NCBI GenBank assembly: GCA_044233485.1
Contig: JBIIJY010000005.1
Location: 26,815 to 50,814, forward strand
Length of the DNA stretch: 24,000 bases
Reading direction: 5' to 3'
DNA from: Minisyncoccia bacterium
Lineage (GTDB): Bacteria; Patescibacteriota; Minisyncoccia; Phycocordibacterales; UBA6065
This document shows positions 4,725 through 22,094 of the stretch, piece by piece. The notes under the pieces were generated by a model. That model was given only the letters and a program-made list of their open reading frames with translations. It searched no databases and was not told the origin of the DNA. How positions within the stretch are numbered: the first letter of the stretch is position 1; each line of letters begins with the position of its first letter. A program made the position numbers and the translations under genes.

Positions 4725-7109
4725 ATGAAACAGACACAACGACTCGTACTCCTTGATGCCCACGCCATCCTCCATCGCGCCTATCACGCCCTCCCTGATT
4801 TTGCGACCTCACAAGGTGTTCCTACGGGTGCTTTGTATGGTTTTTCTACTATGGTGATGCATATTGTCAGTCAATTTAAACCCGACTATATTGTGGGGTG
4901 CTTTGATCTTCCTAAACCCACTTATCGCCATGTTGCCTATGAAGCCTACAAGACTGGTCGAGTGAAAACCGATGATGCGCTCGTCAGTCAACTTAAAAAA
5001 GCACAGGAGCTCTGCGTGAATCTTGGTATCCCGGTGTACTCCCTTGAAGGTTTTGAGGCTGACGACATGCTCGGAACCATTGTTCATACTCTCAAGGATA
5101 GTTTTGATATCGAGATACTTATTGCCTCGGGTGATATGGACACGCTTCAACTTGTTACTGATGACAAAGTGCGAGTGTTTACCTTAAAAAAAGGAATACA
5201 CGATACGATTATTTACAATGAAGACAAAGTAATTGAGCGATTTGGGTTCACTCCAAAACAAATTCCAGATTACAAAGGCCTTCGTGGCGATACTTCCGAT
5301 AATATAATTGGTATTAAAGGGATCGGGGAAAAGACTGCCACCATACTCATCAAAGAGTTTGGTACGGTAGAAGGTATGTATCAGGCTCTAGAGCAAGGTG
5401 ATGAGCGTTTTAGAAAAGTTGGCCTCGCCCCACGAATGATTGAGCTTATTCGTTCAGGTAAAGAAGAGGCTCTGTTTAGTAAAATGCTCGCGACGATTCG
5501 TGTTGATGCGCCAATACAATTCTCATTACCATCAAAGACGTGGCGAGAGGGAATTAATGAAGAAAATATCATCCACCTTTTTGGAGAATATGAGTTCCGC
5601 TCACTCCCTAAGCGATTCAAGGAGCTGCTTGCGGAGCTTGATGGCACGCAGGTAGAAAAGACTGAAATACTCGAGAGTGCAGAAGTGGTTGATCCAGCGC
5701 TTCTTCGCGAGACATTGCTTGCATTGTGGGTAGTAGACTCAAACTATACAAACCCAACAATTGAAGATGTATATACATTTGCTCAAACTCGTTCATTTGA
5801 AAAAGCTCGACAGATAATTACAACCGAACTCACTGCTCGTCAGGGTGTGTATGTATTTGAAGCAATTGAAAAGCCGCTGATTCCCGTGATCGACCAGATG
5901 CGCACCTGGGGTATAGCTATTGATTTGCCGCACCTGGCAAGTCTCAAACAAGAATATCGAGCAGCGGCTCTCGAGCTCGAGAAACAAATACATGCGTATG
6001 CGGGCACAGAGTTTAATATTGCTTCTCCAAAACAGCTGGCCGAAGTGCTATTCAACTCTCTTGGACTAAAAGGTAAAAATCAAAAAAAGACTTCGACGGG
6101 ACAGTTGTCGACCAAAGAGTCAGAGCTTGAAAAGTTGAAAGATGCACATCCGATCATCCCTTGTATTCTTTCGTATCGTGAACTGACTAAACTTCTTTCA
6201 ACCTATATCGAAGTAATACCAACGCTCACTGATACAGCAGGGCGCCTGCACAGTACACTCCTTCAAATGGGAACGACAACTGGCCGAATGGCTTCAGAGG
6301 ATCCAAACATTCAAAACATTCCGATCAAGAGTGCGCTAGGAAGGAGAATTCGGAGTGCGTTCGTCGCTGAGCCGGGTTGGGTGCTCGTGTCGTGTGACTA
6401 CTCACAAATCGAGCTCCGCTGTGCCGCTATCCTTTCAGGTGATGAGCGACTGATGGAGATTTTTAAAAACAATGAAGATATTCACCGCTCTGTTGCATCA
6501 CGGGTCTTTCATGTCTCACCAAGTGAAGTGACTCCAGAGATGCGTCGTAAGGCAAAGGTAATTAACTTTGGAATTCTCTATGGAATGGGAGCAAACGCCC
6601 TCAAAGCGAATCTTGAAGAGGGTGGTGATGTGGTAAGTCGGGCTGATGCACAAACCTATCTCGACGAATACTTTAAAGAATTCAGTGGGGTCGCTGCCTA
6701 TATCGAAGAGACAATTCGCCTTGCCACTGCCAAAGGCTACACTGAAACATTGTTTGGCCGTCGACGGTATTTTGAAAATATTAAGTCACGCATTCCATAC
6801 ATCAAAGCTCAAGCAGAACGTATGGCAATGAATGCCCCGATTCAAGGAACCAATGCCGATATTACCAAACTCGCCATGCAGGCTCTCTGGGGTGGGGTGC
6901 TCAAACAAGGTGCTCGAAGTGATGTTCGTATGCTCCTTCAAATTCATGATGAACTACTCTTTGAAATAAAAGAAGAAGTTTTTGAAACAATTATCCCTGA
7001 GCTATTACGAGTGATGGAGTCGGTCGTTCCGGCAGAGAAGAGAAAAGGGGTACCAATACGAGCCGAGGCAAAGTTTGGAAAGAATTGGGGAGAAATGAAG
7101 TCGGTTTAA
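4725..7109 (+). CDS. polA: DNA polymerase I
   Basis: 794 aa. N-terminal 5'-3' exonuclease/FEN domain (LLDAHAILHRAYHA; GIKGIGEKTA HhH). Family A polymerase motifs A (DYSQIELR), B (RRKAKVINFGILYG) and C (QIHDEL). Confidence 0.95.
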   Translation: MKQTQRLVLLDAHAILHRAYHALPDFATSQGVPTGALYGFSTMVMHIVSQFKPDYIVGCFDLPKPTYRHVAYEAYKTGRVKTDDALVSQLKKAQELCVNLGIPVYSLEGFEADDMLGTIVHTLKDSFDIEILIASGDMDTLQLVTDDKVRVFTLKKGIHDTIIYNEDKVIERFGFTPKQIPDYKGLRGDTSDNIIGIKGIGEKTATILIKEFGTVEGMYQALEQGDERFRKVGLAPRMIELIRSGKEEALFSKMLATIRVDAPIQFSLPSKTWREGINEENIIHLFGEYEFRSLPKRFKELLAELDGTQVEKTEILESAEVVDPALLRETLLALWVVDSNYTNPTIEDVYTFAQTRSFEKARQIITTELTARQGVYVFEAIEKPLIPVIDQMRTWGIAIDLPHLASLKQEYRAAALELEKQIHAYAGTEFNIASPKQLAEVLFNSLGLKGKNQKKTSTGQLSTKESELEKLKDAHPIIPCILSYRELTKLLSTYIEVIPTLTDTAGRLHSTLLQMGTTTGRMASEDPNIQNIPIKSALGRRIRSAFVAEPGWVLVSCDYSQIELRCAAILSGDERLMEIFKNNEDIHRSVASRVFHVSPSEVTPEMRRKAKVINFGILYGMGANALKANLEEGGDVVSRADAQTYLDEYFKEFSGVAAYIEETIRLATAKGYTETLFGRRRYFENIKSRIPYIKAQAERMAMNAPIQGTNADITKLAMQALWGGVLKQGARSDVRMLLQIHDELLFEIKEEVFETIIPELLRVMESVVPAEKRKGVPIRAEAKFGKNWGEMKSV

Positions 7110-7554: not shown

Positions 7555-8217
7555 ATGCTCCATTGTATCGTCGGAACAGATTACTTCAAAATCGAGAAAG
7601 AACTCACCTCATTACGAGAGCGGTATTCGAAGCGGCTTGTCCATGCGTTTAGTCAGACAGAAGTGGGCCTGCAGGAAATACAAGAAGCTCTTTTCTCTCA
7701 AAGTTTTTTTGACGAAGAAAAATTGTTTATCATTTCGGATATTGAAGCACAGGACATCGAGACTCTCCTTCCTGAGATGGTTACTCAGGCAATAATATTT
7801 AAGATCCCTAAACTTCTCAAAAAAGAGCGAGAGTTTCTTGATTCACGTCAGGTTAAAATCCATGAAGTAAAAAACGATCGTGAGGTGGTTGAGGTGTTTG
7901 AACTCTCGGATGCGCTGTTTGCGTGGGACAAAAAACGCGCTTGGCTTGCACTCACCAGACTCCGTGAGACCAACGACATCGAGCCGATATTTGGAACCTA
8001 TCTCTGGGCTCTTAAAACAATATGTATTAGTCAGGGTGATGACGCCAAAACCCTCTCACCGTTTGTGCTTAGTAAATTAAAAGGTATCGGGAAGAAGGTT
8101 TCAGTTGAGGATATCCGTCGGCTTTGGTACGAAGCACTTTGTGCCTATCAGAGTGCTCGACGTGGGGAAGGCGAGCTTGCCTGGCTGCTTGAGAGGCAGC
8201 TCCTGGCAATGAAGTGA
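7555..8217 (+). CDS. Possible DNA polymerase III delta subunit (HolA-like), tentative
   Basis: I moved the start to ATG 7555 because the 7528 start would overlap the start of the divergent gene. About 220 aa, helical. It weakly resembles short HolA proteins of reduced genomes. The family call is from general resemblance only. Confidence 0.4.
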   Translation: MLHCIVGTDYFKIEKELTSLRERYSKRLVHAFSQTEVGLQEIQEALFSQSFFDEEKLFIISDIEAQDIETLLPEMVTQAIIFKIPKLLKKEREFLDSRQVKIHEVKNDREVVEVFELSDALFAWDKKRAWLALTRLRETNDIEPIFGTYLWALKTICISQGDDAKTLSPFVLSKLKGIGKKVSVEDIRRLWYEALCAYQSARRGEGELAWLLERQLLAMK

Positions 8218-8272: not shown

Positions 8273-8345
8273 GCGCCCGTAGCTCAGTCGGTAGAGCATC
8301 TCCCTTTTAAGGAGTGGGTCGTTGGTTCGATTCCAACCGGGCGCA
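8273..8345 (+). tRNA. tRNA-Lys (anticodon UUU)
   Basis: Cloverleaf read by eye. Acceptor GCGCCCG/CGGGCGC, D arm GCTC-AGTCGGTA-GAGC, anticodon loop CUUUUAA, T arm GTTGG-TTCGATT-CCAAC, discriminator A. CCA is not encoded. Confidence 0.9.
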
Positions 8346-8371
8346 CAAAACGACGTTGAGGCGTAACGTAG

Positions 8372-9139
8372 TTAACGTGTCTCACTCCAGATATACTCGA
8401 ACATAATTCTAAATGTCTCAGTGATATATTTACTCTCGATAACAACAGTTAGGTAGCTTTCTTTGAAATTAGTAATAGCGACCTTATCCCCGTAAATTAC
8501 TATTTGTGCAGGAATTTTCAAACGGTCAGCTGGAACTTTTTTTCGAGTAATTAAATATTGAGTGTCTTCCTCAATCGGGGTGGCAATTATCTGACCATCA
8601 GTGTGGGGTGTAATTGCTTTCGTGTGAATATTCTTTTCAATCTGTTTATCGATCTGTTCTTTAATTAAATGAAGAACTTCTTGACGCCCTTCATGTATGG
8701 GTGAACTGATTACAAGTATGTTTTGATTCGTTTCGAGGATGTCATTATGAGTATATTTAATACCCTCGATTCCTTCATAAAACTGCACATTAGGTTTTCC
8801 ATTCAAGGAGTTAAACTCAGAAGAAAGCTTTCCAAGTATGTTGCCAAACTCAGAAAAAGCTCGGGATACGTGCTGTTTTTTCGTTTCAAGAAGCTCTTGT
8901 ATGCCTTTTGGATGCTTAGGGAAGAAGAGTGATACCTTACCAATATCATCTCGTTTTTCGACAAGGTTTAATTCAATGAGCTGCTCAAGTACTTTGTAGA
9001 CTAATGGCCTACCAAGATTGGTTTTAAGAGAAATAATCTTTGCCGGCGATAGGCCGTTTTTCAAAAGGTAAGTATAAATCAGCGCTTGTTCTTGACTTAA
9101 TCCGCACTCAGTAAGGATTGTTTCATTTATATTTGTCAT
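8372..9139 (-). CDS. TrmB-family transcriptional regulator
   Basis: The N-terminal winged helix LSQEQALIYTYLLKNGLSPAKIISLKTNLGRPLVYKVLEQLIELNLVEK is TrmB-type. I set the start to ATG 9139 (MTNINE...) because a TATAAT -10 box (9157-9152, minus strand) lies inside the longer ORF-track version. Confidence 0.75.
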   Translation of the reverse strand: MTNINETILTECGLSQEQALIYTYLLKNGLSPAKIISLKTNLGRPLVYKVLEQLIELNLVEKRDDIGKVSLFFPKHPKGIQELLETKKQHVSRAFSEFGNILGKLSSEFNSLNGKPNVQFYEGIEGIKYTHNDILETNQNILVISSPIHEGRQEVLHLIKEQIDKQIEKNIHTKAITPHTDGQIIATPIEEDTQYLITRKKVPADRLKIPAQIVIYGDKVAITNFKESYLTVVIESKYITETFRIMFEYIWSETR

Positions 9140-9151
9140 AAGTATGTGACA

Positions 9152-9179
9152 ATTATACACTTATAAATACAGTATGCAA
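9152..9179 (-). promoter_or_regulatory. Promoter of the TrmB-family gene (short leader)
   Basis: On the minus strand: TTGCAT (9179-9174), 16-nt spacer, TATAAT (9157-9152). The ATG at 9139 is 12 nt downstream of the -10 box. Confidence 0.5.
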
Positions 9180-9231
9180 GTTAATTGTGTTATATAGCAA
9201 TGAAACTATAGAGATTCTAAGGTAGATTGTA

Positions 9232-9259
9232 TTGACAAATCTATTCATTATGCTATGAT
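9232..9259 (+). promoter_or_regulatory. Promoter of the hammerhead-punctuated operon
   Basis: TTGACA (9232-9237), 16-nt spacer, TGcTATGAT (TATGAT at 9254-9259). Divergent from the TrmB-family gene promoter about 50 nt away. Confidence 0.6.
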
Positions 9260-9325
9260 TATATAAGAACAAGGGAAAAGGAAGCACTTACGCTTTACTA
9301 CCTGAGTATAGTTGACATTTCAGTC

Positions 9326-9667
9326 ATGAAAACCACTACATATTTCGGCTTTGGCATCGCCCCCTCAATGTTCCCGGACGGGAACATCACCAAAACTACC
9401 CTTTCGCCTGAAGAGGCGAAAGCGGTGGTCGAGGCAGGGGTGATCCCTTGCCTCAACCCGAGCCATAAGGCGTCGATAGACGCCTTGGGGAGCCGGTTCG
9501 GCATCACAGTGCCAATTCCCGAGCGCGCGCCGACGGTGGCATTGGTGCCAGGCGATCGTCTGCTGGTCATGGGCATCTCGGGACTCCCTCGTTTGGAGGG
9601 TCGCCACGAGTATTCCAGTGAGGAGGTTGCCAAGGCCACCTTTACCTTCTCACTCTGGGCGGTTTAA
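9326..9667 (+). CDS. DUF1874 / AcrIII-1-like protein (putative cyclic tetra-adenylate ring nuclease family)
   Basis: 113 aa. Recognised from my memory of SIRV1 gp29 / STIV B116. It shares their length, an N-terminal hydrophobic FGFGIAPSMF segment, a His at residue 47 (NPSHKASIDAL versus the family's GHDSTI context), GDRLLVMGISG, an RLEG motif at residues 89-92 and a C-terminal FTFSLW strand. One hand-counted 60-nt line (9481-9540) is 43/60 GC, against about 18-19/60 in typical host lines. Confidence 0.55.
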   Translation: MKTTTYFGFGIAPSMFPDGNITKTTLSPEEAKAVVEAGVIPCLNPSHKASIDALGSRFGITVPIPERAPTVALVPGDRLLVMGISGLPRLEGRHEYSSEEVAKATFTFSLWAV

Positions 9668-9824
9668 GGAGAAGGGGGTGAGGAAGGTTGTAAGTGAACC
9701 TAAAAAACTTCACATCGGCCACGATTGTTATGGCGTCATCATCGACGAGACAGATGCGTAATTCTTTGGGGAAGCTCCAGAGCGCTTGGTAAGCGGAAAC
9801 TACTGGGATGATGCAAATTATCCC

Positions 9825-9874
9825 CTGTTCTCGGAATGTAATTCCGACTGATGAGTCCAAAAGGACGAAAACAG
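9825..9874 (+). ncRNA. Hammerhead ribozyme, type III (copy 1)
   Basis: Stem III CUGUU (9825-9829) pairs with AACAG (9870-9874). C17 is at 9830 (UUC site). Stem I is UCGGAAU-GUA-AUUCCGA (9831-9847). Core CUGAUGA (9848-9854), stem II GUCC-AAAA-GGAC (9855-9866), GAAA (9867-9870). All invariant core nucleotides are present. Confidence 0.9.
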
Positions 9875-9927
9875 AAAGTTTTTGAAGGAGTAAATTAACA
9901 ATCAAAAAAATAGAAAGGAGGTGAAAA

Positions 9928-10131
9928 ATGAGGAATAAATTCCTTAGTCTGACTAAGTGGTTGGCAGTCATGATCATCGTCAATAGCTTAATCGCTTTGG
10001 TGGTCGTCATGAATGCTGACACCAACAGTCAGTCGTTCCAGAAGTTTTGGGAGAGCCGTAACCTGATTCTGATCGCAAATCTTTTGCTGATCGTGGCTTG
10101 TGGTGCTTCCGCCCGACTCTCGAGGAACTGA
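9928..10131 (+). CDS. Small two-TM membrane protein (hypothetical)
   Basis: 67 aa. Strong SD AAGGAGGTG (9915-9923), with 4 nt between it and the ATG. Two predicted TM helices (WLAVMIIVNSLIALVVVM; LILIANLLLIVACGASA) and a basic C-terminus RLSRN. It lies between hammerheads 1 and 2. Confidence 0.65.
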   Translation: MRNKFLSLTKWLAVMIIVNSLIALVVVMNADTNSQSFQKFWESRNLILIANLLLIVACGASARLSRN

Positions 10132-10265
10132 CTGGTAGGAAAGTCTACCTAAAGGATCACCCAGGGTTTGCTAGTAAAGAACTCTAACCTTTAATTCAAA
10201 AGGGTGTGAATGTCACCGTGTATACATGGTGAGTTGGCGTGCAACGCCACGGATCAAAAGATTCG

Positions 10266-10317
10266 TTCTGTCTCGGAATGTAATTCCGACTGATGAGTCC
10301 AAAAGGACGAAACAGAA
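10266..10317 (+). ncRNA. Hammerhead ribozyme, type III (copy 2)
   Basis: Stem III UUCUGU (10266-10271) pairs with ACAGAA (10312-10317). C17 is at 10272 (GUC site). Stem I UCGGAAU-GUA-AUUCCGA, CUGAUGA, GUCC-AAAA-GGAC and GAAA follow. The 42-nt core is identical to copy 1. Confidence 0.92.
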
Positions 10318-10516
10318 GGTTCAAATTTAATGTGATCAGTTTCAGCTAGCATGAAACTGGTAAAGGATCTATCTCGCAGCGTGACGGCGAACCTGTCAGC
10401 GTAAGAGGTGGCTTAGATCCAGCTTAAGAATGACCTATTCTTGAGCACTTTATTGAGCCTGCCACGTTGTGTGGTTGGTTCATAGAGTTCTTGAACAACT
10501 AATTGAAAGGAGTGGT

Positions 10517-10756
10517 ATGTTGATCTTAAACATCGACCGAGTCAAACAGCTTGTTGAGGGAGACCAAAAGGATGGGGAGATCCCCATCATGGCTCTCCGT
10601 CGGAGGCTCATCGAGGGTAAGGTGACAAAGGCAGACCTTTTCAAGACGAGGTGCTTCGGCACCAGGTCTTGGAGAAGTCTGCTCGAGCTACTCGATCTCG
10701 AAGAGGGTCAAGTCATTGCCTCTCGTCCGGAGGGTGTGGTGGCGGCTGCGGCTTAG
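10517..10756 (+). CDS. Small hypothetical protein (possible helix-hairpin-helix-like nucleic-acid binder)
   Basis: 79 aa counted from ATG 10517, which follows the SD GAAAGGAG (10506-10513). The ORF-track GTG start at 10469 has no SD. The segment FGTRSWRSLLELLDLEEG loosely resembles an HhH motif. GC-rich. It lies between hammerheads 2 and 3. Confidence 0.55.
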   Translation: MLILNIDRVKQLVEGDQKDGEIPIMALRRRLIEGKVTKADLFKTRCFGTRSWRSLLELLDLEEGQVIASRPEGVVAAAA

Positions 10757-10799
10757 GCTCGCGGGGTATGCATACTACCTGGCAACAGAATTGTATGAA

Positions 10800-10823
10800 T
10801 AGTATTAGAGTACTCTAATACTA
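10800..10823. repeat. 24-bp perfect palindrome abutting hammerhead 3
   Basis: TAGTATTAGAGTACTCTAATACTA equals its own reverse complement. It ends 1 nt before stem III of hammerhead 3. Confidence 0.9.
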
Positions 10824-10874
10824 GTTGTTTTGGAATGTGTGTTCCGACTGATGAGTCCAAAAGGACGAAACAAC
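10824..10874 (+). ncRNA. Hammerhead ribozyme, type III (copy 3, divergent stems)
   Basis: Stem III GUUGU (10824-10828) pairs with ACAAC (10870-10874). U17 is at 10829 (GUU site). Stem I is UUGGAAU-GUGU-GUUCCGA (two G-U pairs), and the core CUGAUGA-GUCC-AAAA-GGAC-GAAA is identical to the other copies. It sits 57 nt upstream of the methyltransferase ATG. Confidence 0.85.
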
Positions 10875-10930
10875 AATCATCTACTTGCTTTTTATATAAT
10901 GAAGCGTCTATAGTAACTTCCGTCGACGCA

Positions 10931-13896: not shown

Positions 13897-14163
13897 ATGG
13901 CAATTACATCTTCAGCAAAGAAAGCACTCCGCGCTAGTGTACATAAGCGTGATTTCAACATTGCTCGTAAAGAGAAAATGAATGAAGCAGTTCGAGAAGT
14001 TCGAAAGCAGATCGCTCTTAAAGACGCAAAGAAGGCACAAGCCGCTCTCGCACTTGCATACAGTACTATTGATAAGGCGGCGAAGGGATATACGATCAAA
14101 TGGGGAACTGCTGATCGAAAGAAATCTCGATTGACTGCAGAAGTAAAGGCTCTCAAGAAATAA
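13897..14163 (+). CDS. rpsT: 30S ribosomal protein bS20
   Basis: 88 aa. MAITSSAKKALRAS..., Lys/Ala-rich, typical of S20. Confidence 0.9.
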   Translation: MAITSSAKKALRASVHKRDFNIARKEKMNEAVREVRKQIALKDAKKAQAALALAYSTIDKAAKGYTIKWGTADRKKSRLTAEVKALKK

Positions 14164-14166
14164 AAC

Positions 14167-14195
14167 AAAAAACCGCCATGGCGGTTTTTTGTTTT
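14167..14195. terminator. Bidirectional rho-independent terminator
   Basis: AAAAAACCGCcatgGCGGTTTTTT: an A-run, a GC stem and a T-run, immediately after the rpsT stop. Confidence 0.8.
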
Positions 14196-14272
14196 ATTTG
14201 CTAAAGTACTTTTTATTCCACTCGTCGTTCAATGGATAGGACGCAAGTTTGCGGAACTTGCAATAGAAGTTC

Positions 14273-14294
14273 GATTCTTCTCGAGTGGACAAGT
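14273..14294 (+). repeat. Left copy of a 22-bp perfect direct repeat flanking the radical SAM cassette
   Basis: GATTCTTCTCGAGTGGACAAGT, identical to 16394-16415. The sequence flanking the two copies is unrelated. Confidence 0.9.
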
Positions 14295-14354
14295 AATTAT
14301 TTCTCCTACGAGAGGAGACGCGGGGCGGCCATGTTGTAAACGAAATTATAAATA

Positions 14355-14383
14355 TTGACGAAATGCAAAATAAGTTGTAATTT
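14355..14383 (+). promoter_or_regulatory. Possible promoter of the radical SAM gene
   Basis: TTGACG (14355-14360), 17-nt spacer, TAATTT (14378-14383). It lies inside the repeat-bounded unit, 43 nt upstream of the ATG. Confidence 0.35.
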
Positions 14384-14425
14384 ATATCTGGATTTCCGAA
14401 ACCTAAACCCAGAAACGTCTTTGAA

Positions 14426-16276
14426 ATGAAATACTCAAAACTCGGGCTCGTCGCCCTCCTCATCGCCTCGATGTTTCGGGTGCAGACCTTTCAGACTGCC
14501 CCGATCCTTCCAGGTAATCCGAATCTGGTTGAATATGACCAGGCGCGGAACGTCTACATCGACAAGAATACATGGTTCGACAGCTGGACACTTGGTCTTC
14601 CTGATGATCATCCGATCCGCAAAAGTATGCGCGGTGGAGTAGAGTATCCGCCAGTTAAGAAAACTAGCGTAACATTCAATCCGCAACTTATTTTTCAGAA
14701 GAAGGAGCATGTCTGTGCGGCTGGAATAATGTTCATCACACAGAGCCAACGTAAGTCGCGTCGGCTCGTGCTGATCAATGTTGAACAGATGCTCAACGAG
14801 CAAACGGGAGACAATCGTCAGTATCGTGTATGGCCTCATCTTGGCCTCATCTTCGTTGGCACGGTCGCCGATGAAGAAGGTTATGAAGTAGTCATATGGG
14901 ATGAGTATGCTAAAGGATCAGCCCCCCTGGAACAACTCGTTCGCTCTGGTGACATCGTCGGACTCAGCCTTGTTGTTACTGGCATGGATCGCGGCGTCAC
15001 CCTAGCTCGCAAAGCGAAGGAACTCGGTGCTCAGTATGTAATCGCCGGTAACGACTCTGCGATCTTCCGTGCAAATCAAGTAATGGCTCTTCCTGATCAT
15101 CCGATCGATGCAGTCTTTACTAGCAATAGCCTTGCAGCCATTCGTAGGTTCTTCCGAGAAATCGGAGAAGATAACATCGGCCAGCTTCAAATCCCCGGTG
15201 TTCAAATCACCACAGGAGGAGAAGTTCGTTCAAATGAGCGTGATCGTCTTTTGTTCGAACTCAAAACTCGCAAAAGTGAAGGGTCTGATCAGGACGATGT
15301 CTTCGTAGTTCCAAAGCTCGAACTCTATCCTCATTGGGATGAGTTGTGGGCAAACTACCGAGCCACCTTTGGTCATAAGCACAGTAATCCTGATTCTGTG
15401 AAGAACGCAATCGCACTCTTTGCCCAGGGATGCACGCGCACTCGCGGGAGCGATGTTTGTAGCTACTGCACCATTGCAGGAGTTGCCGATATTCGCATTC
15501 TCTCAAGGGAGATGATGGCTCGTTCGGTCGAGGCCTACAATAACTTCGGTGTGGACACGGTGTTCAATACTACCGACAGCGCCTACGAAATGCACAAGGT
15601 CGTCAAAATGCTCCAGGAGCTTGGTGCTTCTTGGAAAGCGATGTCGATCTACGGCAGAGCACAAGGAATTGCTCGTAACCCACATCTGCTCGACGAGTGG
15701 CAGAAAGTCGCTACGGAGCGACTACTCATCAATGTCGGAATGGATTCCGGCAGCGACGACATGCTCCTCAAGGGCGTGGTCAAGTCATCGGTCGAAGGGT
15801 GCGGCAGCCGTCTCAACGAAAATCGAGAGGCGGTCAGACGCATTCAGAAAGCCGGTGCACATCTGCACTATTCCTTGATCTTCGGATCTCCAGGCGAGTC
15901 AAAGGAAACCTGCGAAAGCAGTATCCGATTTCTCGAATGGACAGTCGACACGCTCGGGCATCAGCTCGACATCTGTGAGACTGACATCTACTGGCTGAAC
16001 TTCGGTTCGCCAGCAAGTCGTGTGTTCCACGACTACAGTTATGCTCAGCGACTTGCTGGGCTGGCTGGGAAGTATATCTCTCAGGAGGAATGGCAATGCG
16101 AGTTCGTTCGCTATGCCAATGTACTCGTCGTTCCGATGAGTGTCGAAGAGTCGTGGTATCGCCACTTCACAAAGATCGATCTTGAAACCGCGCAGGCTTA
16201 CAATCAGCGAGCTACCGAGATCATGGTGAGACACACGGGGAGTATTCGTGGCAGAGCCTTTAGGCCGTCGGTTTAG
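14426..16276 (+). CDS. B12-binding-domain radical SAM protein with an atypical cluster motif
   Basis: 616 aa. A Rossmann-like B12-binding-type region (RRLVLINVEQ...HLGLIFVGTVADEEGYEVVIWDE...IVGLSLVV). Radical SAM core features GCTRTRGSDVCSYC (C336-x8-C345-x2-C348), NVGMDSGSDDML and LIFGSPGESKE. An unusual ~110-aa N-terminal extension begins with a signal-peptide-like MKYSKLGLVALLIASMF. The true start is uncertain. Confidence 0.75.
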   Translation: MKYSKLGLVALLIASMFRVQTFQTAPILPGNPNLVEYDQARNVYIDKNTWFDSWTLGLPDDHPIRKSMRGGVEYPPVKKTSVTFNPQLIFQKKEHVCAAGIMFITQSQRKSRRLVLINVEQMLNEQTGDNRQYRVWPHLGLIFVGTVADEEGYEVVIWDEYAKGSAPLEQLVRSGDIVGLSLVVTGMDRGVTLARKAKELGAQYVIAGNDSAIFRANQVMALPDHPIDAVFTSNSLAAIRRFFREIGEDNIGQLQIPGVQITTGGEVRSNERDRLLFELKTRKSEGSDQDDVFVVPKLELYPHWDELWANYRATFGHKHSNPDSVKNAIALFAQGCTRTRGSDVCSYCTIAGVADIRILSREMMARSVEAYNNFGVDTVFNTTDSAYEMHKVVKMLQELGASWKAMSIYGRAQGIARNPHLLDEWQKVATERLLINVGMDSGSDDMLLKGVVKSSVEGCGSRLNENREAVRRIQKAGAHLHYSLIFGSPGESKETCESSIRFLEWTVDTLGHQLDICETDIYWLNFGSPASRVFHDYSYAQRLAGLAGKYISQEEWQCEFVRYANVLVVPMSVEESWYRHFTKIDLETAQAYNQRATEIMVRHTGSIRGRAFRPSV

Positions 16277-16301
16277 CTGGGAGCTCATTCGTAAAAACAC
16301 C

Positions 16302-16335
16302 AGGCCCTCGATGATGAATCGGGGGTCTGTTTTAT
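16302..16335 (+). terminator. Rho-independent terminator of the radical SAM gene
   Basis: AGGCCCTCGAT-gatga-ATCGGGGGTCT (11 bp including two G-U pairs) followed by GTTTTAT. Confidence 0.6.
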
Positions 16336-16393
16336 ACTTATGATCCCATAAAAAATCTTGGCAGCAGATTAAGTAGCCACTCCCGCATGGAGA

Positions 16394-16415
16394 GATTCTT
16401 CTCGAGTGGACAAGT
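16394..16415 (+). repeat. Right copy of the 22-bp perfect direct repeat
   Basis: GATTCTTCTCGAGTGGACAAGT, identical to 14273-14294 and 2121 nt from it. It lies 5 nt beyond the stop of the minus-strand gene 16421-16879. Confidence 0.9.
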
Positions 16416-16420
16416 TACTG

Positions 16421-16879
16421 TTAGAACCCCCAGTGCTCGAGAATTTTGTGAAGCACTGGCTCTCGAACATCAGCTTCTTTGGTGAGGGTGAGCATGACCG
16501 TCTTTACTCGGTCGGGGTGAGTATTTTCGATAACTACTGTGCGTACAGGAAAGAGGGTTCGTTTGATTTGAACATGAAGTTTGTATGCGCCACTATGCGC
16601 TTCGTCTTCGATACAAAAGCCATCAATATGAGCCCGCGGATAAAATTCTTCATTAATCTGTAATCCTTGTTTTGTAATTTGGATTTTCGTTGAACGTTCG
16701 CCAGAGAGCGCGATGGCGACAACGACCAGTGTTCCAAGAAGTACCACTACTCCAAACGAAACATTTCCAAGGAGAATTGCCGCTAGAGCTCCAGAAAAGC
16801 CGACAATGAGAACTGAGATGTACCAGTCTTTGCTACGTTCTTTTCGTGCGGGCGTGTGAATCCATTCGAGTAAAAGCAT
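16421..16879 (-). CDS. Hypothetical membrane protein
   Basis: 152 aa. Two N-terminal TM helices (WYISVLIVGFSGALAAILLG; VVVLLGTLVVVAIAL) followed by a ~90-aa soluble domain. No recognisable family. Confidence 0.6.
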   Translation of the reverse strand: MLLLEWIHTPARKERSKDWYISVLIVGFSGALAAILLGNVSFGVVVLLGTLVVVAIALSGERSTKIQITKQGLQINEEFYPRAHIDGFCIEDEAHSGAYKLHVQIKRTLFPVRTVVIENTHPDRVKTVMLTLTKEADVREPVLHKILEHWGF

Positions 16880-20563: not shown

Positions 20564-20604
20564 AAAATCAAAATCCACCAGTTACGGTGGATTAGATTTT
20601 GCGG
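20564..20604 (-). repeat. Terminator-like hairpin repeat, copy A
   Basis: AAAATCAAAATCCACCaGTTACGGTGGATTAGATTTtGCGG matches 21970-22010 at 39 of 41 positions. On the minus strand it is a hairpin followed by UUUUGAUUUU. Confidence 0.8.
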
Positions 20605-20702
20605 GCATCATGGGTTCAGCACTAGGACGGTGAGACGCCATAAGGATATTTTAGCCGGTTTTTTGAGGTCTAATTGAGGTGTGTGGGTCAGGGTCAAGAG
20701 TA

Positions 20703-21134
20703 CTAAAAGGAAACAATATATGGAGATGTAGTACTTGATTCAATAAATTCCTTTAGTGCCTTAGTTTTTGTTCCTCCATCGTCACTCTTCAAAATAATTT
20801 CTAACTTAGGCAAGATCGTTTCTGAGGCAGCTTGCATAGCCACTTCATCATTTGTAACTTCTGGATGTCTCTCTTTAAAATATTGCAAACCTTGCTGTAT
20901 AGAAATATAAGTTACAGATTTTACCTCTATCCGACTTTCAAGAGAAGCCTTAAGGCTTAGTATGGTTGATTCAGGTGTATCTTTTTTAAATGCAACATGT
21001 CTAGTAAGCATTTCTTTATTAAATGAATTTACTCCGGATGCGGTATCTTTTAAAAACACAGCATCTTTATACACATAAATTCCAGCACCGATGAGTAGCA
21101 GAACGATTATTGAAACTATAGTCTTTTTATTCAT
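20703..21134 (-). CDS. Hypothetical membrane-anchored protein
   Basis: 143 aa. N-terminal TM helix (IVSIIVLLLIGAGIYVY). The soluble part (VKSVTYISIQQGLQYFKERHPE) faintly recalls FtsX-type extracytoplasmic domains, but I make no firm call. Confidence 0.5.
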   Translation of the reverse strand: MNKKTIVSIIVLLLIGAGIYVYKDAVFLKDTASGVNSFNKEMLTRHVAFKKDTPESTILSLKASLESRIEVKSVTYISIQQGLQYFKERHPEVTNDEVAMQAASETILPKLEIILKSDDGGTKTKALKEFIESSTTSPYIVSF

Positions 21135-21452
21135 AAGGATAACTTAACTTAAATCTGATGCTTTGTGTAGTGAAGGTGGATGAGTCGCCCCACGGTCATA
21201 GGTACTCAGGTTATGCTGATACCAAGTTCTTAATGCGGACTACTCAGGTTTCAAACTATTGAGATGAGACCCTATAGGGGGTATCTTAGCAGATTTTTCA
21301 TATCCATTCCGATGCTTACGCATGGGTTTCGGCTTTTCCCTGATTTGAGTAAGGATAGAGGATTTAAAGCTTATTGACATAAGTAACTATGTATGTTAAT
21401 AACATTATAGATATATAAACGTAGAAACAACCAACAAGAAAGGAGCCACTTC

Positions 21453-21737
21453 GTGCCCATAGCAGCGAGAAGTCAAAAAGTCACGAGAAGCCATAGAACA
21501 CTGACAGAAACATCCGCGGAAGTTGCCTCCATCCTAGATAAACTGGAAGCAGTTTCTAAAATCAGCCTTGGTAGCATACGCCATGTCCCGGGTGGAAGAA
21601 GGGATGTAAAATTCCACTCAATGACAGGCGGCATCAAAGTTGTGGTTCGGGGCAACGGCGCAGTGCATGATTTGTATGTCTACACGACCGAACCCGAGAT
21701 GGTTAGACAACAGCTTGAAGAGAAATTTGCTAAGTGA
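21453..21737 (+). CDS. Hypothetical protein
   Basis: 94 aa. GTG start preceded by SD AAAGGAG (21440-21446) with a 6-nt spacer. An upstream TTGACA ... TAATAA promoter-like pair. No family recognised. Confidence 0.5.
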   Translation: MPIAARSQKVTRSHRTLTETSAEVASILDKLEAVSKISLGSIRHVPGGRRDVKFHSMTGGIKVVVRGNGAVHDLYVYTTEPEMVRQQLEEKFAK

Positions 21738-21747
21738 TTCTTATTGG

Positions 21748-21783
21748 GCCGCATCAGTAAATGGTGCGGCTCTTCTGTTATTT
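21748..21783 (+). terminator. Rho-independent terminator
   Basis: GCCGCA-(11-nt loop)-TGCGGC followed by TCTTCTGTTATTT, 10 nt after the stop at 21737. Confidence 0.5.
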
Positions 21784-21969
21784 AATTGCTTTTACAAAAG
21801 ACAGAGTCATCAATATAGTCCGATGCTAAAACCCAAGCACGGAGGAGCGGTGAGAATTTCTCCCTCGACTAAAATTACACCGGCACTCAAATTTTTTATT
21901 ACTACAACAAATATACTCCGTCGTTCGAATCTCACAGAGAAGTGCATTGAGCACTTCCTCTCCTTGCTC

Positions 21970-22010
21970 AAAATCAAAATCCACCGGTTACGGTGGATTA
22001 GATTTGGCGG
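21970..22010 (-). repeat. Terminator-like hairpin repeat, copy B (tRNA-Ser terminator)
   Basis: AAAATCAAAATCCACCgGTTACGGTGGATTAGATTTgGCGG. It overlaps the last nucleotides (CCGCCA) of tRNA-Ser and acts as its intrinsic terminator on the minus strand. Confidence 0.8.
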
Positions 22011-22094
22011 AGGAGGTGAGATTCGAACTCACGACCCAGTTGCCCGGGTGACGGTTTTCAAGACCGTTGCTTTAGACCACTCAGCCACTCCTCC
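22005..22094 (-). tRNA. tRNA-Ser (anticodon UGA), CCA encoded
   Basis: Minus-strand read: acceptor GGAGGAG/CUCCUCC, anticodon stem ACGGU/ACCGU with loop CUUGAAA, long variable arm CACCCGGGCAACUGGGUC, T arm GUGAG-UUCGAAU-CUCAC, then G-CCA. Confidence 0.9.

Follow-up and report, generated by a model that had tools for sequence, protein, structure and literature searches.

In the core chromosome of a Patescibacteria (Candidate Phyla Radiation, CPR) bacterium, we have identified a 2.1-kb cassette with a single radical S-adenosylmethionine (SAM) gene that directly follows an intact tRNA-Arg(GCG) gene and is closed, at its far end, by a displaced copy of the 3′ end of that same tRNA gene. The cassette lies in a 24,000-nt stretch of DNA, “the window” (GCA_044233485.1, contig JBIIJY010000005.1, positions 26,815–50,814), in whose numbering positions are given here. 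At slightly better than even chances, we take it for an integrase-less mini-island resembling the cis-mobilizable elements (CIMEs), inserted by a tyrosine recombinase that acted in trans or has since been lost. Such an islet at a tRNA gene (tDNA), or CIME-like element, is of a known kind, found here in a phylum where it is barely described. The original prediction, a foreign single-gene cassette without a recombinase, inserted with att-type duplication and with no tRNA as target, was right in spirit and wrong on the target: the left repeat lies inside the tRNA-Arg gene, and what had been taken for an otherwise short intergenic region between rpsT and a gene for a 152-aa membrane protein contains this tRNA gene.

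The cassette is delimited by an exact 22-mer, GATTCTTCTCGAGTGGACAAGT, present on the + strand at 14273–14294 and 16394–16415. These are its only two copies in the window, where allowing as many as 3 mismatches brought up no other; a match arose in 0 of 100 dinucleotide shuffles, and the 22-mer was seen nowhere else across the 44 kb read from the source genome (the window plus 10 kb on each side). The perfect repeats and unrelated flanks described from the start are confirmed, the identity having sharp edges: GAAGTTC stands against ATGGAGA upstream, 4 of 7 nt match downstream, and the outer flanks are unrelated. The left copy starts inside the T-loop and is composed of T-loop positions 4–7 (the last four bases of the loop), the 3′ strand of the T-stem, the 3′ strand of the acceptor stem, the discriminator and the trailer; that is, the last 17–18 nt of tRNA-Arg(GCG) followed by 4–5 nt of trailer. 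Since it is the 3′ end of a tRNA gene, the repeat pair looks like the attL and attR of a tRNA-integrated island. In fact, an intact tRNA gene with a displaced 3′ fragment in direct orientation is the signature used for mapping tDNA islands to the nucleotide (PMC4383910). Following the Islander scheme, the intact tRNA-Arg(GCG) gene (14218–14290) is at one end and the fragment, 17–18 of its 22 nt being tRNA sequence, is in direct orientation at the other; the segment is absent from the same site in the sister species and of foreign origin, as seen from the AHSA1 gene in the sister slot, the GC content and the fourfold-degenerate sites presented below. The tyrosine integrase that such an island carries inside was not found, the sole gene being the radical SAM gene. 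The anticodon of this tRNA is GCG both in the window (14218–14290) and in the sister species (locus L050, 3928–4000), in contrast to ACG, the usual anticodon of bacterial tRNA-Arg. Linkage of tRNA-Arg to rpsT was observed even in a distant genome (L028, tRNA at 2753–2827), where a radical SAM gene lies on the opposite side of the rpsT-RuvA-Fpg block.

Comparison with a sister species (PolA 89% identical at the amino acid level, RuvA 97.5% identical), represented by loci L050, L051 and L052 from three independent samples, showed the same flanks with a different gene after tRNA-Arg. Over the stretch that begins at the rpsT stop and takes in the terminator, the spacer and the tRNA-Arg gene, itself 100% identical in L050 and L051, 128 of 128 nt are identical (window 14164–14291, L050 3927–4054); the coding DNA beside this block is only 91–92% identical between the two species. 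The sister sequence diverges directly after GAGTGGACA (GGACA) and continues with a 556-bp segment carrying a gene for a 148-aa AHSA1/SRPBCC protein; alignment resumes exactly where the 152-aa gene has its stop codon. The sister slot has no second 22-mer, and the cassette is present in all contigs of the species of the window, from five samples. Because an identical tRNA gene is followed by an AHSA1 gene in the sister species, the slot downstream of tRNA-Arg is, on the loci compared, a variable site with alternative single-gene occupants.

The composition of the cassette is foreign to its surroundings. At 0.501, its GC content stands above the 0.446 of the remaining window and exceeds that of each of 177 other 2.1-kb windows (maximum 0.482), so that the GC excess first estimated by hand holds over its full length. 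With its homologs, the cargo protein makes up a family of at least 224 members, about 615 aa long and distributed over many CPR classes, and none of the 37 genome loci at which these were inspected is syntenic with the window. The closest relative (88% amino acid identity) belongs to a distant genome (L053), where the unit directly follows a tRNA-Lys(TTT) gene and a hairpin, and where its GC content is 0.511 against 0.404 in the flank. The homology (window 14346–16333, 84% at the nucleotide level) leaves out the 51-nt and 60-nt arms that separate the unit from the two repeats in the window. Between the same two genomes, amino acid identity falls from 88% for the cargo to 52% for PolA and 29% for holA, and identity at fourfold-degenerate sites from 0.647 for the cargo to 0.287 for PolA. 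The cargo value is also above those of host genes between the window and the sister species (L050; 0.441 for PolA, 0.41 for Fpg); therefore, the common ancestor of the two cargo copies is younger than the split between the two species. With cargo divergence far below that of host genes and a GC-rich cassette in both hosts, horizontal transfer of the cargo unit is demonstrated at the sequence level. The claim of an insertion with att-type duplication and foreign cargo is thus borne out by the different occupant in the sister species and by the unit behind tRNA-Lys in L053. No relatives of the cargo protein were found in metagenome contigs and none of its family in viral contigs and phage records; the only plasmid match was a Streptomyces gene with 24.5% identity, and no cluster of recombinases emerged among 193 neighbouring open reading frames (ORFs) of the 37 loci. 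In a Moranbacteria metagenome-assembled genome (L041), a homologous radical SAM gene lies between direct repeats of about 85–95 bp (5784–5865 and 7863–7953), which are made up of the final ~20 nt of the MacB/FtsX permease gene lying upstream, together with its terminator. The architecture is like that of the cassette, but the site is not a tRNA gene.

A single event could account for this arrangement. The two 22-mers would be the attL and attR of one tDNA integration, in which an element would have recombined with the chromosomal tRNA gene (attP × attB within the T-loop and 3′ end), most likely via a tyrosine recombinase. Recombination would have restored an intact tRNA gene proximally, with the displaced 3′ fragment of 22 nt ending up 2.1 kb downstream. 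The cargo so delivered would be self-contained, comprising a promoter, the gene for the 616-aa radical SAM protein with its cobalamin-binding-like domain and a bidirectional terminator, and this unit would already have been moving horizontally among Patescibacteria. Lacking its own recombinase, the element would be a minimal passenger that is serviced in trans or else what decay has left of a larger island, and both fit the definition of a CIME, in which attL and attR are kept while integration and transfer genes are absent (PMC5704250); this is what the cassette presents. The cassette could equally be a decayed remnant as a trans-mobilisable one. We infer that a site-specific recombinase made the junctions and that both arms arrived together with the gene.

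Several results weigh against this history. Recombinase domains were found neither in the cassette nor in the window nor in the 10 kb on either side, which upholds the first description of the insert and extends it to 44 kb. A truly empty tRNA-Arg site, which the original prediction had proposed to look for in related genomes, was not found among the loci compared, the sister slot holding its AHSA1 gene. The arms are not conserved with L053, therefore the gene unit moved at least once without them, and no distal tRNA fragment was found at L053 or at the tRNA-adjacent homologs L013, L022, L027, L046 and L047. The 22-mer, which it had been proposed to seek elsewhere in the genome and beside other cargo genes, did not recur in the 44 kb and had 0 matches in viral contigs; a 24-mer of the tRNA 3′ half had 0 matches in metagenome contigs, and a 17-mer gave 2 chance matches in viral contigs, both outside any tRNA context. 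The locus yields predicted junctions that can be searched for in reads, GAGTGGACAAGTTACTGTTAGAA and GCAATAGAAGTTCGATTCTTCTCGAGTGGACAAGTTACTGTTAGAACCCCC for attB and CATGGAGAGATTCTTCTCGAGTGGACAAGTAATTATTTC and CCACTCCCGCATGGAGAGATTCTTCTCGAGTGGACAAGTAATTATTTCTCCTACG for attP.

Inside the cassette (Table 1), a single credible gene was found between the repeats, as had been read at the outset, and it carries a radical SAM domain (PF04055). The promoter-like element ahead of it fared less evenly: it falls under the threshold of a consensus scan, but its TTGAC and its AT-rich -10 region lie within the block conserved with L053. The terminator was recovered by a terminator scan as a hairpin (16301–16329) followed by a T tract and, with a T run on the minus strand as well, it can act for the cargo gene as well as for the 152-aa gene that converges on it. 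The right edge of the shared unit, at 16333/16334, is also seen against two other homologous loci (L013 and L014). In the right arm, CCACTCC (16375–16381) is an inverted copy of the 3′ strand of the tRNA acceptor stem, 11 nt before the second 22-mer. A “minihelix” at attR, in which CCACTCC would pair with GAGTGG in an acceptor-like or T-arm-like fold, was rejected since the fold is not significant (z -1.25 to -1.55). No terminal inverted repeats were found at the cassette ends, in agreement with the first description. The cassette also differs from transposons and miniature inverted-repeat transposable elements (MITEs) in that its 22-bp duplication is a tRNA 3′ end. On the left, the rpsT terminator is a perfect 21+21-nt palindrome (14158–14199). 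Contig breaks were considered as a sign of population heterogeneity and this was rejected, as the short-read (Logan) breaks fall inside the rpsT palindrome and not at the 22-mer. Among the proteins encoded in the window are YebC, RuvB, PilB, TsaE, PolA, Fpg, RuvA and rpsT, and dnaA/dnaN lie about 17 kb away from it.

Table 1. Features of the cassette, its flanks and the nearby mini-elements (window numbering; L056 is the same contig as the window, and window coordinate = L056 + 12537)
Feature	Position	Strand	Evidence or remark
rpsT + terminator, left flank	13897..14199	+	perfect 21+21-nt palindrome
tRNA-Arg(GCG) gene, intact, putative integration target	14218..14290	+	ARAGORN; Rfam RF00005, 56.6 bits
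22-mer copy 1 (putative attL core)	14273..14294	+	exact match; register from Rfam tRNA alignment
Left arm, 51 nt, locus-specific, with hairpin TCTCCTacgagAGGAGA	14295..14345	+	outside L053 homology, which begins at 14346; fold prediction
Transferable promoter-gene-terminator unit	14346..16333	+	blastn, 84% nucleotide identity to L053
Promoter-like element TTGACG-N17-TAATTT	14355..14383	+	read from sequence; under consensus-scan threshold
Cargo gene, 616-aa radical SAM protein with cobalamin-binding-like domain	14426..16276	+	Pfam, NCBIfam, alignment, AF2, Foldseek
Intrinsic terminator hairpin, T tracts on both strands	16301..16337	.	terminator scan; minus-strand T run read from sequence
Right arm, 60 nt, locus-specific	16334..16393	+	sequence reading; outside L053 blastn block
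22-mer copy 2 (putative attR core), tRNA-Arg 3′ fragment	16394..16415	+	exact match; absent in sister species
152-aa membrane-protein gene, right flank	16421..16879	-	sister-species homology resumes exactly at stop codon
Mini-elements after tRNA-Val, tRNA-Leu, tRNA-His	L056 13306-13608, 14936-15070, 17894-18067		1.8-6.6 kb beyond window end

The tRNA-Arg slot is not alone. With three variable slots in the window, at tRNA-Lys, tRNA-Arg and tRNA-Ser, tRNA-proximal insertion is a general feature here. After tRNA-Lys(TTT) (8273–8346), a 2,584-bp segment (8347–10930) has only 30 bp as its counterpart in the sister species. This segment holds a TrmB-like gene on the minus strand (8372–9160, GC 0.36) and small ORFs, one of them with a weak Csx16 match. 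It also contains three type III hammerhead ribozyme motifs on the + strand (9823–9876, 10265–10318 and 10822–10876; 49.7, 38.8 and 38.5 bits), in direct orientation with spacings of 442 and 558 nt; two of them share 42 identical nt, and the last motif lies about 55 nt upstream of the start of a SpoU methylase gene. Behind the tRNA-Ser(TGA) gene (22005–22094, minus strand) come, in this order, a terminator, a structured mini-element (21838–21935), which is degenerate and scores 76 bits to model R1, and a block of cargo bounded by a 41-nt repeat (21970–22010 and 20564–20604). We compared this slot over 20564–22010 (minus strand) in the window and 585–2460 in L051. The cargo is wholly different in the sister species, comprising RibD_C and a 153-aa ORF, and an exact 15-nt copy of the tRNA-Ser 3′ end stands there 1.1 kb downstream of the tRNA. 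The cargo blocks each end in an element of about 100–130 nt (window 20564–20697; L051 1466–1600 and 2357–2458), the 3′ part of which resembles the tRNA-Ser 3′ end plus terminator, giving the 41-nt repeat. In L051, the RibD_C gene lies between tRNA-Ser and the terminator with its mini-element, which are contiguous in the window.

Further along the contig, tRNA-Val, tRNA-Leu and tRNA-His are each followed by ORF-less elements of about 114–190 nt. At the start of each stands an inverted copy of its own tRNA's 3′ end, and at the close an exact direct copy of it (27 nt for Val, 20 for Leu and 23 for His). At tRNA-Val, the 132-nt unit is repeated perfectly in tandem, in 2.4 copies, and the Val and Leu units are mutually homologous. 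The elements are strongly structured (folding z -3.0 to -5.8) and share a hairpin around GAGCGACGGCGA with compensatory changes, while no Rfam family matched them. As such 3′-end copies follow tRNA-Ser, -Val, -Leu and -His here and are essentially absent among 25 tRNAs of other CPR loci, the pattern speaks for an activity particular to this lineage and aimed at tRNA 3′ ends, and it is a more unusual lead than the cassette itself.

These mini-elements open a second way to the arrangement at tRNA-Arg, in two steps: the distal 22-mer would have come from an ORF-less mini-element already present behind the tRNA gene, and the unit 14346–16333 would have dropped in later by an unrelated route. We hold this to be a real but lesser possibility, about one chance in a handful or a little better. 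Elements of the required kind, strongly structured (z -3.0 to -5.8) and with compensatory changes, follow tRNA-Val, -Leu and -His on the same contig, with a degenerate one after tRNA-Ser in the window itself, and the RibD_C gene of L051, lying between tRNA-Ser and its mini-element, indicates that cargo can land in such a place. Moreover, homology with L053, L013 and L014 leaves out both arms, the arms plus one repeat add up to 51+60+22 = 133 nt against 132–134 nt for the Val and Leu units, and CCACTCC before the second copy can pair with GAGTGG as in the closing stem of the mini-elements. On the other hand, joining the arms alone gives a reconstruction without significant structure (z -0.7 to -1.5); none of the mini-elements is significantly similar to the arms, and a covariance model of the Val, Leu and Ser elements matches neither end of the cassette. 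On these three grounds (similarity, fold and covariance model), membership of the arms in the mini-element family was rejected. At the tRNA-Arg gene of the sister species, too, such an element is absent, and the two-step history specifies no mechanism for inserting the gene unit.

Perhaps no dedicated recombinase was involved at all. Transformed DNA could have been captured through RecA-type or homology-facilitated illegitimate recombination with the tRNA gene as anchor, the repeat arising from a Campbell-type single crossover on the 22 bp, though this seems improbable to us. The window does encode a type IV pilus or competence-type ATPase (PilB/T2SSE) as well as RuvABC genes, and no genes are better conserved as anchors between divergent genomes than those for tRNAs, as the 128 identical nt between the two species illustrate; besides, the cargo of L053 and L051 stands next to tRNAs without long repeats, or with 5-nt repeats only. 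However, 22 bp is at or under the usual minimum for efficient homologous recombination, the identity block begins sharply in the T-loop and does not span the whole 72-nt tRNA expected of a donor copy, and one-sided anchoring makes no direct repeat. As for a chance match or common regulatory motif with a gene inherited vertically in place, the identical arrangement in all sampled contigs of the species would agree with it, but it is refuted, to the point of a negligible residual probability, by the sister-species comparison, in which gene and second copy are both missing, and by the codon-position analysis, whose synonymous sites show recent transfer, along with the shuffles without a match, the uniqueness of the 22-mer in 44 kb and the 0 of 37 other loci in synteny.

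Returning to the proposed mini-island and its putative tyrosine recombinase, a wider and more speculative extension deserves mention, which we regard as rather unlikely though not far-fetched. This CPR lineage may run a set of non-autonomous elements, all directed at the stretch from T-loop to 3′ end of tRNA genes and including both single-gene cassettes and mini-elements, with one unlinked recombinase serving all of them. The cassettes would be the radical SAM gene at tRNA-Arg and RibD_C, FtsX-ECD and others at tRNA-Ser; the mini-elements would be the structured units of ~130 nt at tRNA-Val, tRNA-Leu and tRNA-His, where perfect-tandem amplification is possible. If this is true, it would amount to an integron-like cassette economy whose attachment sites are tRNA 3′ ends, in bacteria that have genomes of ~0.7 Mb.

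The cargo protein matches the radical SAM domain PF04055 with 25.8 bits in Pfam, whereas the B12-binding radical SAM subfamilies of NCBIfam match it weakly, with scores far under the family cut-offs; PF02310 is recorded on some of its homologs. The AlphaFold2 (AF2) model has a mean pLDDT of 84.7, and the best Foldseek matches are AprD4 and TsrM (E 1e-15 to 1e-14, 14–16% identity). In both, a radical SAM barrel is joined to a Rossmann domain of the cobalamin-binding type, although AprD4-type enzymes do not use cobalamin. The invariant cysteines in the family alignment follow Cx8Cx2C (C336, C345 and C348) and not CxxxCxxC, so that, compared with class B radical SAM enzymes, the fold is like that of TsrM and AprD4, but the scores are below cut-offs and the motif is non-canonical. 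A search of PDB sequences with the family profile gave no matches, and PADLOC and PHROG searches gave the cargo no defence or phage annotation; for the ORFs of the islands, they returned only weak matches, to Csx16 and CARF, in two ORFs of the tRNA-Lys island. The family has an N-terminal extension (residues 1–110) with a hydrophobic helix, a small beta domain and a disordered linker (92–109). In 7 of the 37 loci (L025, L035, L036, L038, L039, L040 and L045), the radical SAM gene is adjoined, mostly divergently, by the gene of a TrmB-family winged-helix protein of ~250–270 aa, which suggests a regulator-enzyme pair. A distant TrmB-like homolog lies 5 kb off in the window, within the tRNA-Lys insertion.

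CPR bacteria have minimal genomes, and the routes by which they gain genes are very little known. The locus presents a case of gene gain with base precision, in which a self-sufficient unit that moved between hosts with 52% identical PolA settled at the 3′ end of a tRNA gene, accompanied by an att-type duplication and in the absence of a resident integrase.

Among known systems, tDNA islands of the Islander type, such as P4-like elements, and the tDNA prophage Ms6 share with the cassette the intact tRNA gene with a direct 3′ copy and the foreign composition. The attP core of phage Ms6 is 26 bp long and spans tRNA-Ala from the T-loop to the 3′ end (PMC1762012); the identity block here likewise runs from the T-loop through the 3′ end plus a few nt, with 22 bp against 26 bp. 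Occupancy of the slot that is specific to strain or species is shared as well (PMC4383910). Islands of this type, in contrast, carry their integrase, while none is present within 44 kb here, and they are typically far larger than a 2.1-kb cassette with one gene; the empty site is also unobserved here. CIMEs of Firmicutes are recognised as decay products left by integrative and conjugative elements (ICEs) or integrative mobilizable elements (IMEs), mobilised by accretion with an incoming related ICE. The host here is a CPR bacterium with no ICE, IME or conjugation genes known, and what is shared is the anatomy. Integron cassettes share the single-gene mobile unit without a recombinase of its own, served in trans and stacked at one site. 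They differ in that no attC-type imperfect palindrome was found beyond the terminator of the cassette, and no IntI or attI, while here the unit has its own promoter and the duplicated sequence is a tRNA 3′ end. Finally, the tycheposon islands of Prochlorococcus carry variable cargo after tRNAs, with partial tRNA copies between insertions, and are mostly integrase-less (bioRxiv 10.1101/2020.12.28.424599). Their hallmark genes, a tyrosine recombinase and a replication module, were not found in the DNA read here, and the cassettes of this locus each consist of one gene with a promoter and a terminator of its own; shared are the streamlined genome and the variable cargo next to tRNAs, with three such slots in the window. 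Since two more variable tRNA slots lie within the same 24 kb and mini-elements stand nearby, these likenesses suggest that tRNA-proximal cassette turnover, as in Prochlorococcus and in ICE and CIME biology, also shapes CPR genomes.

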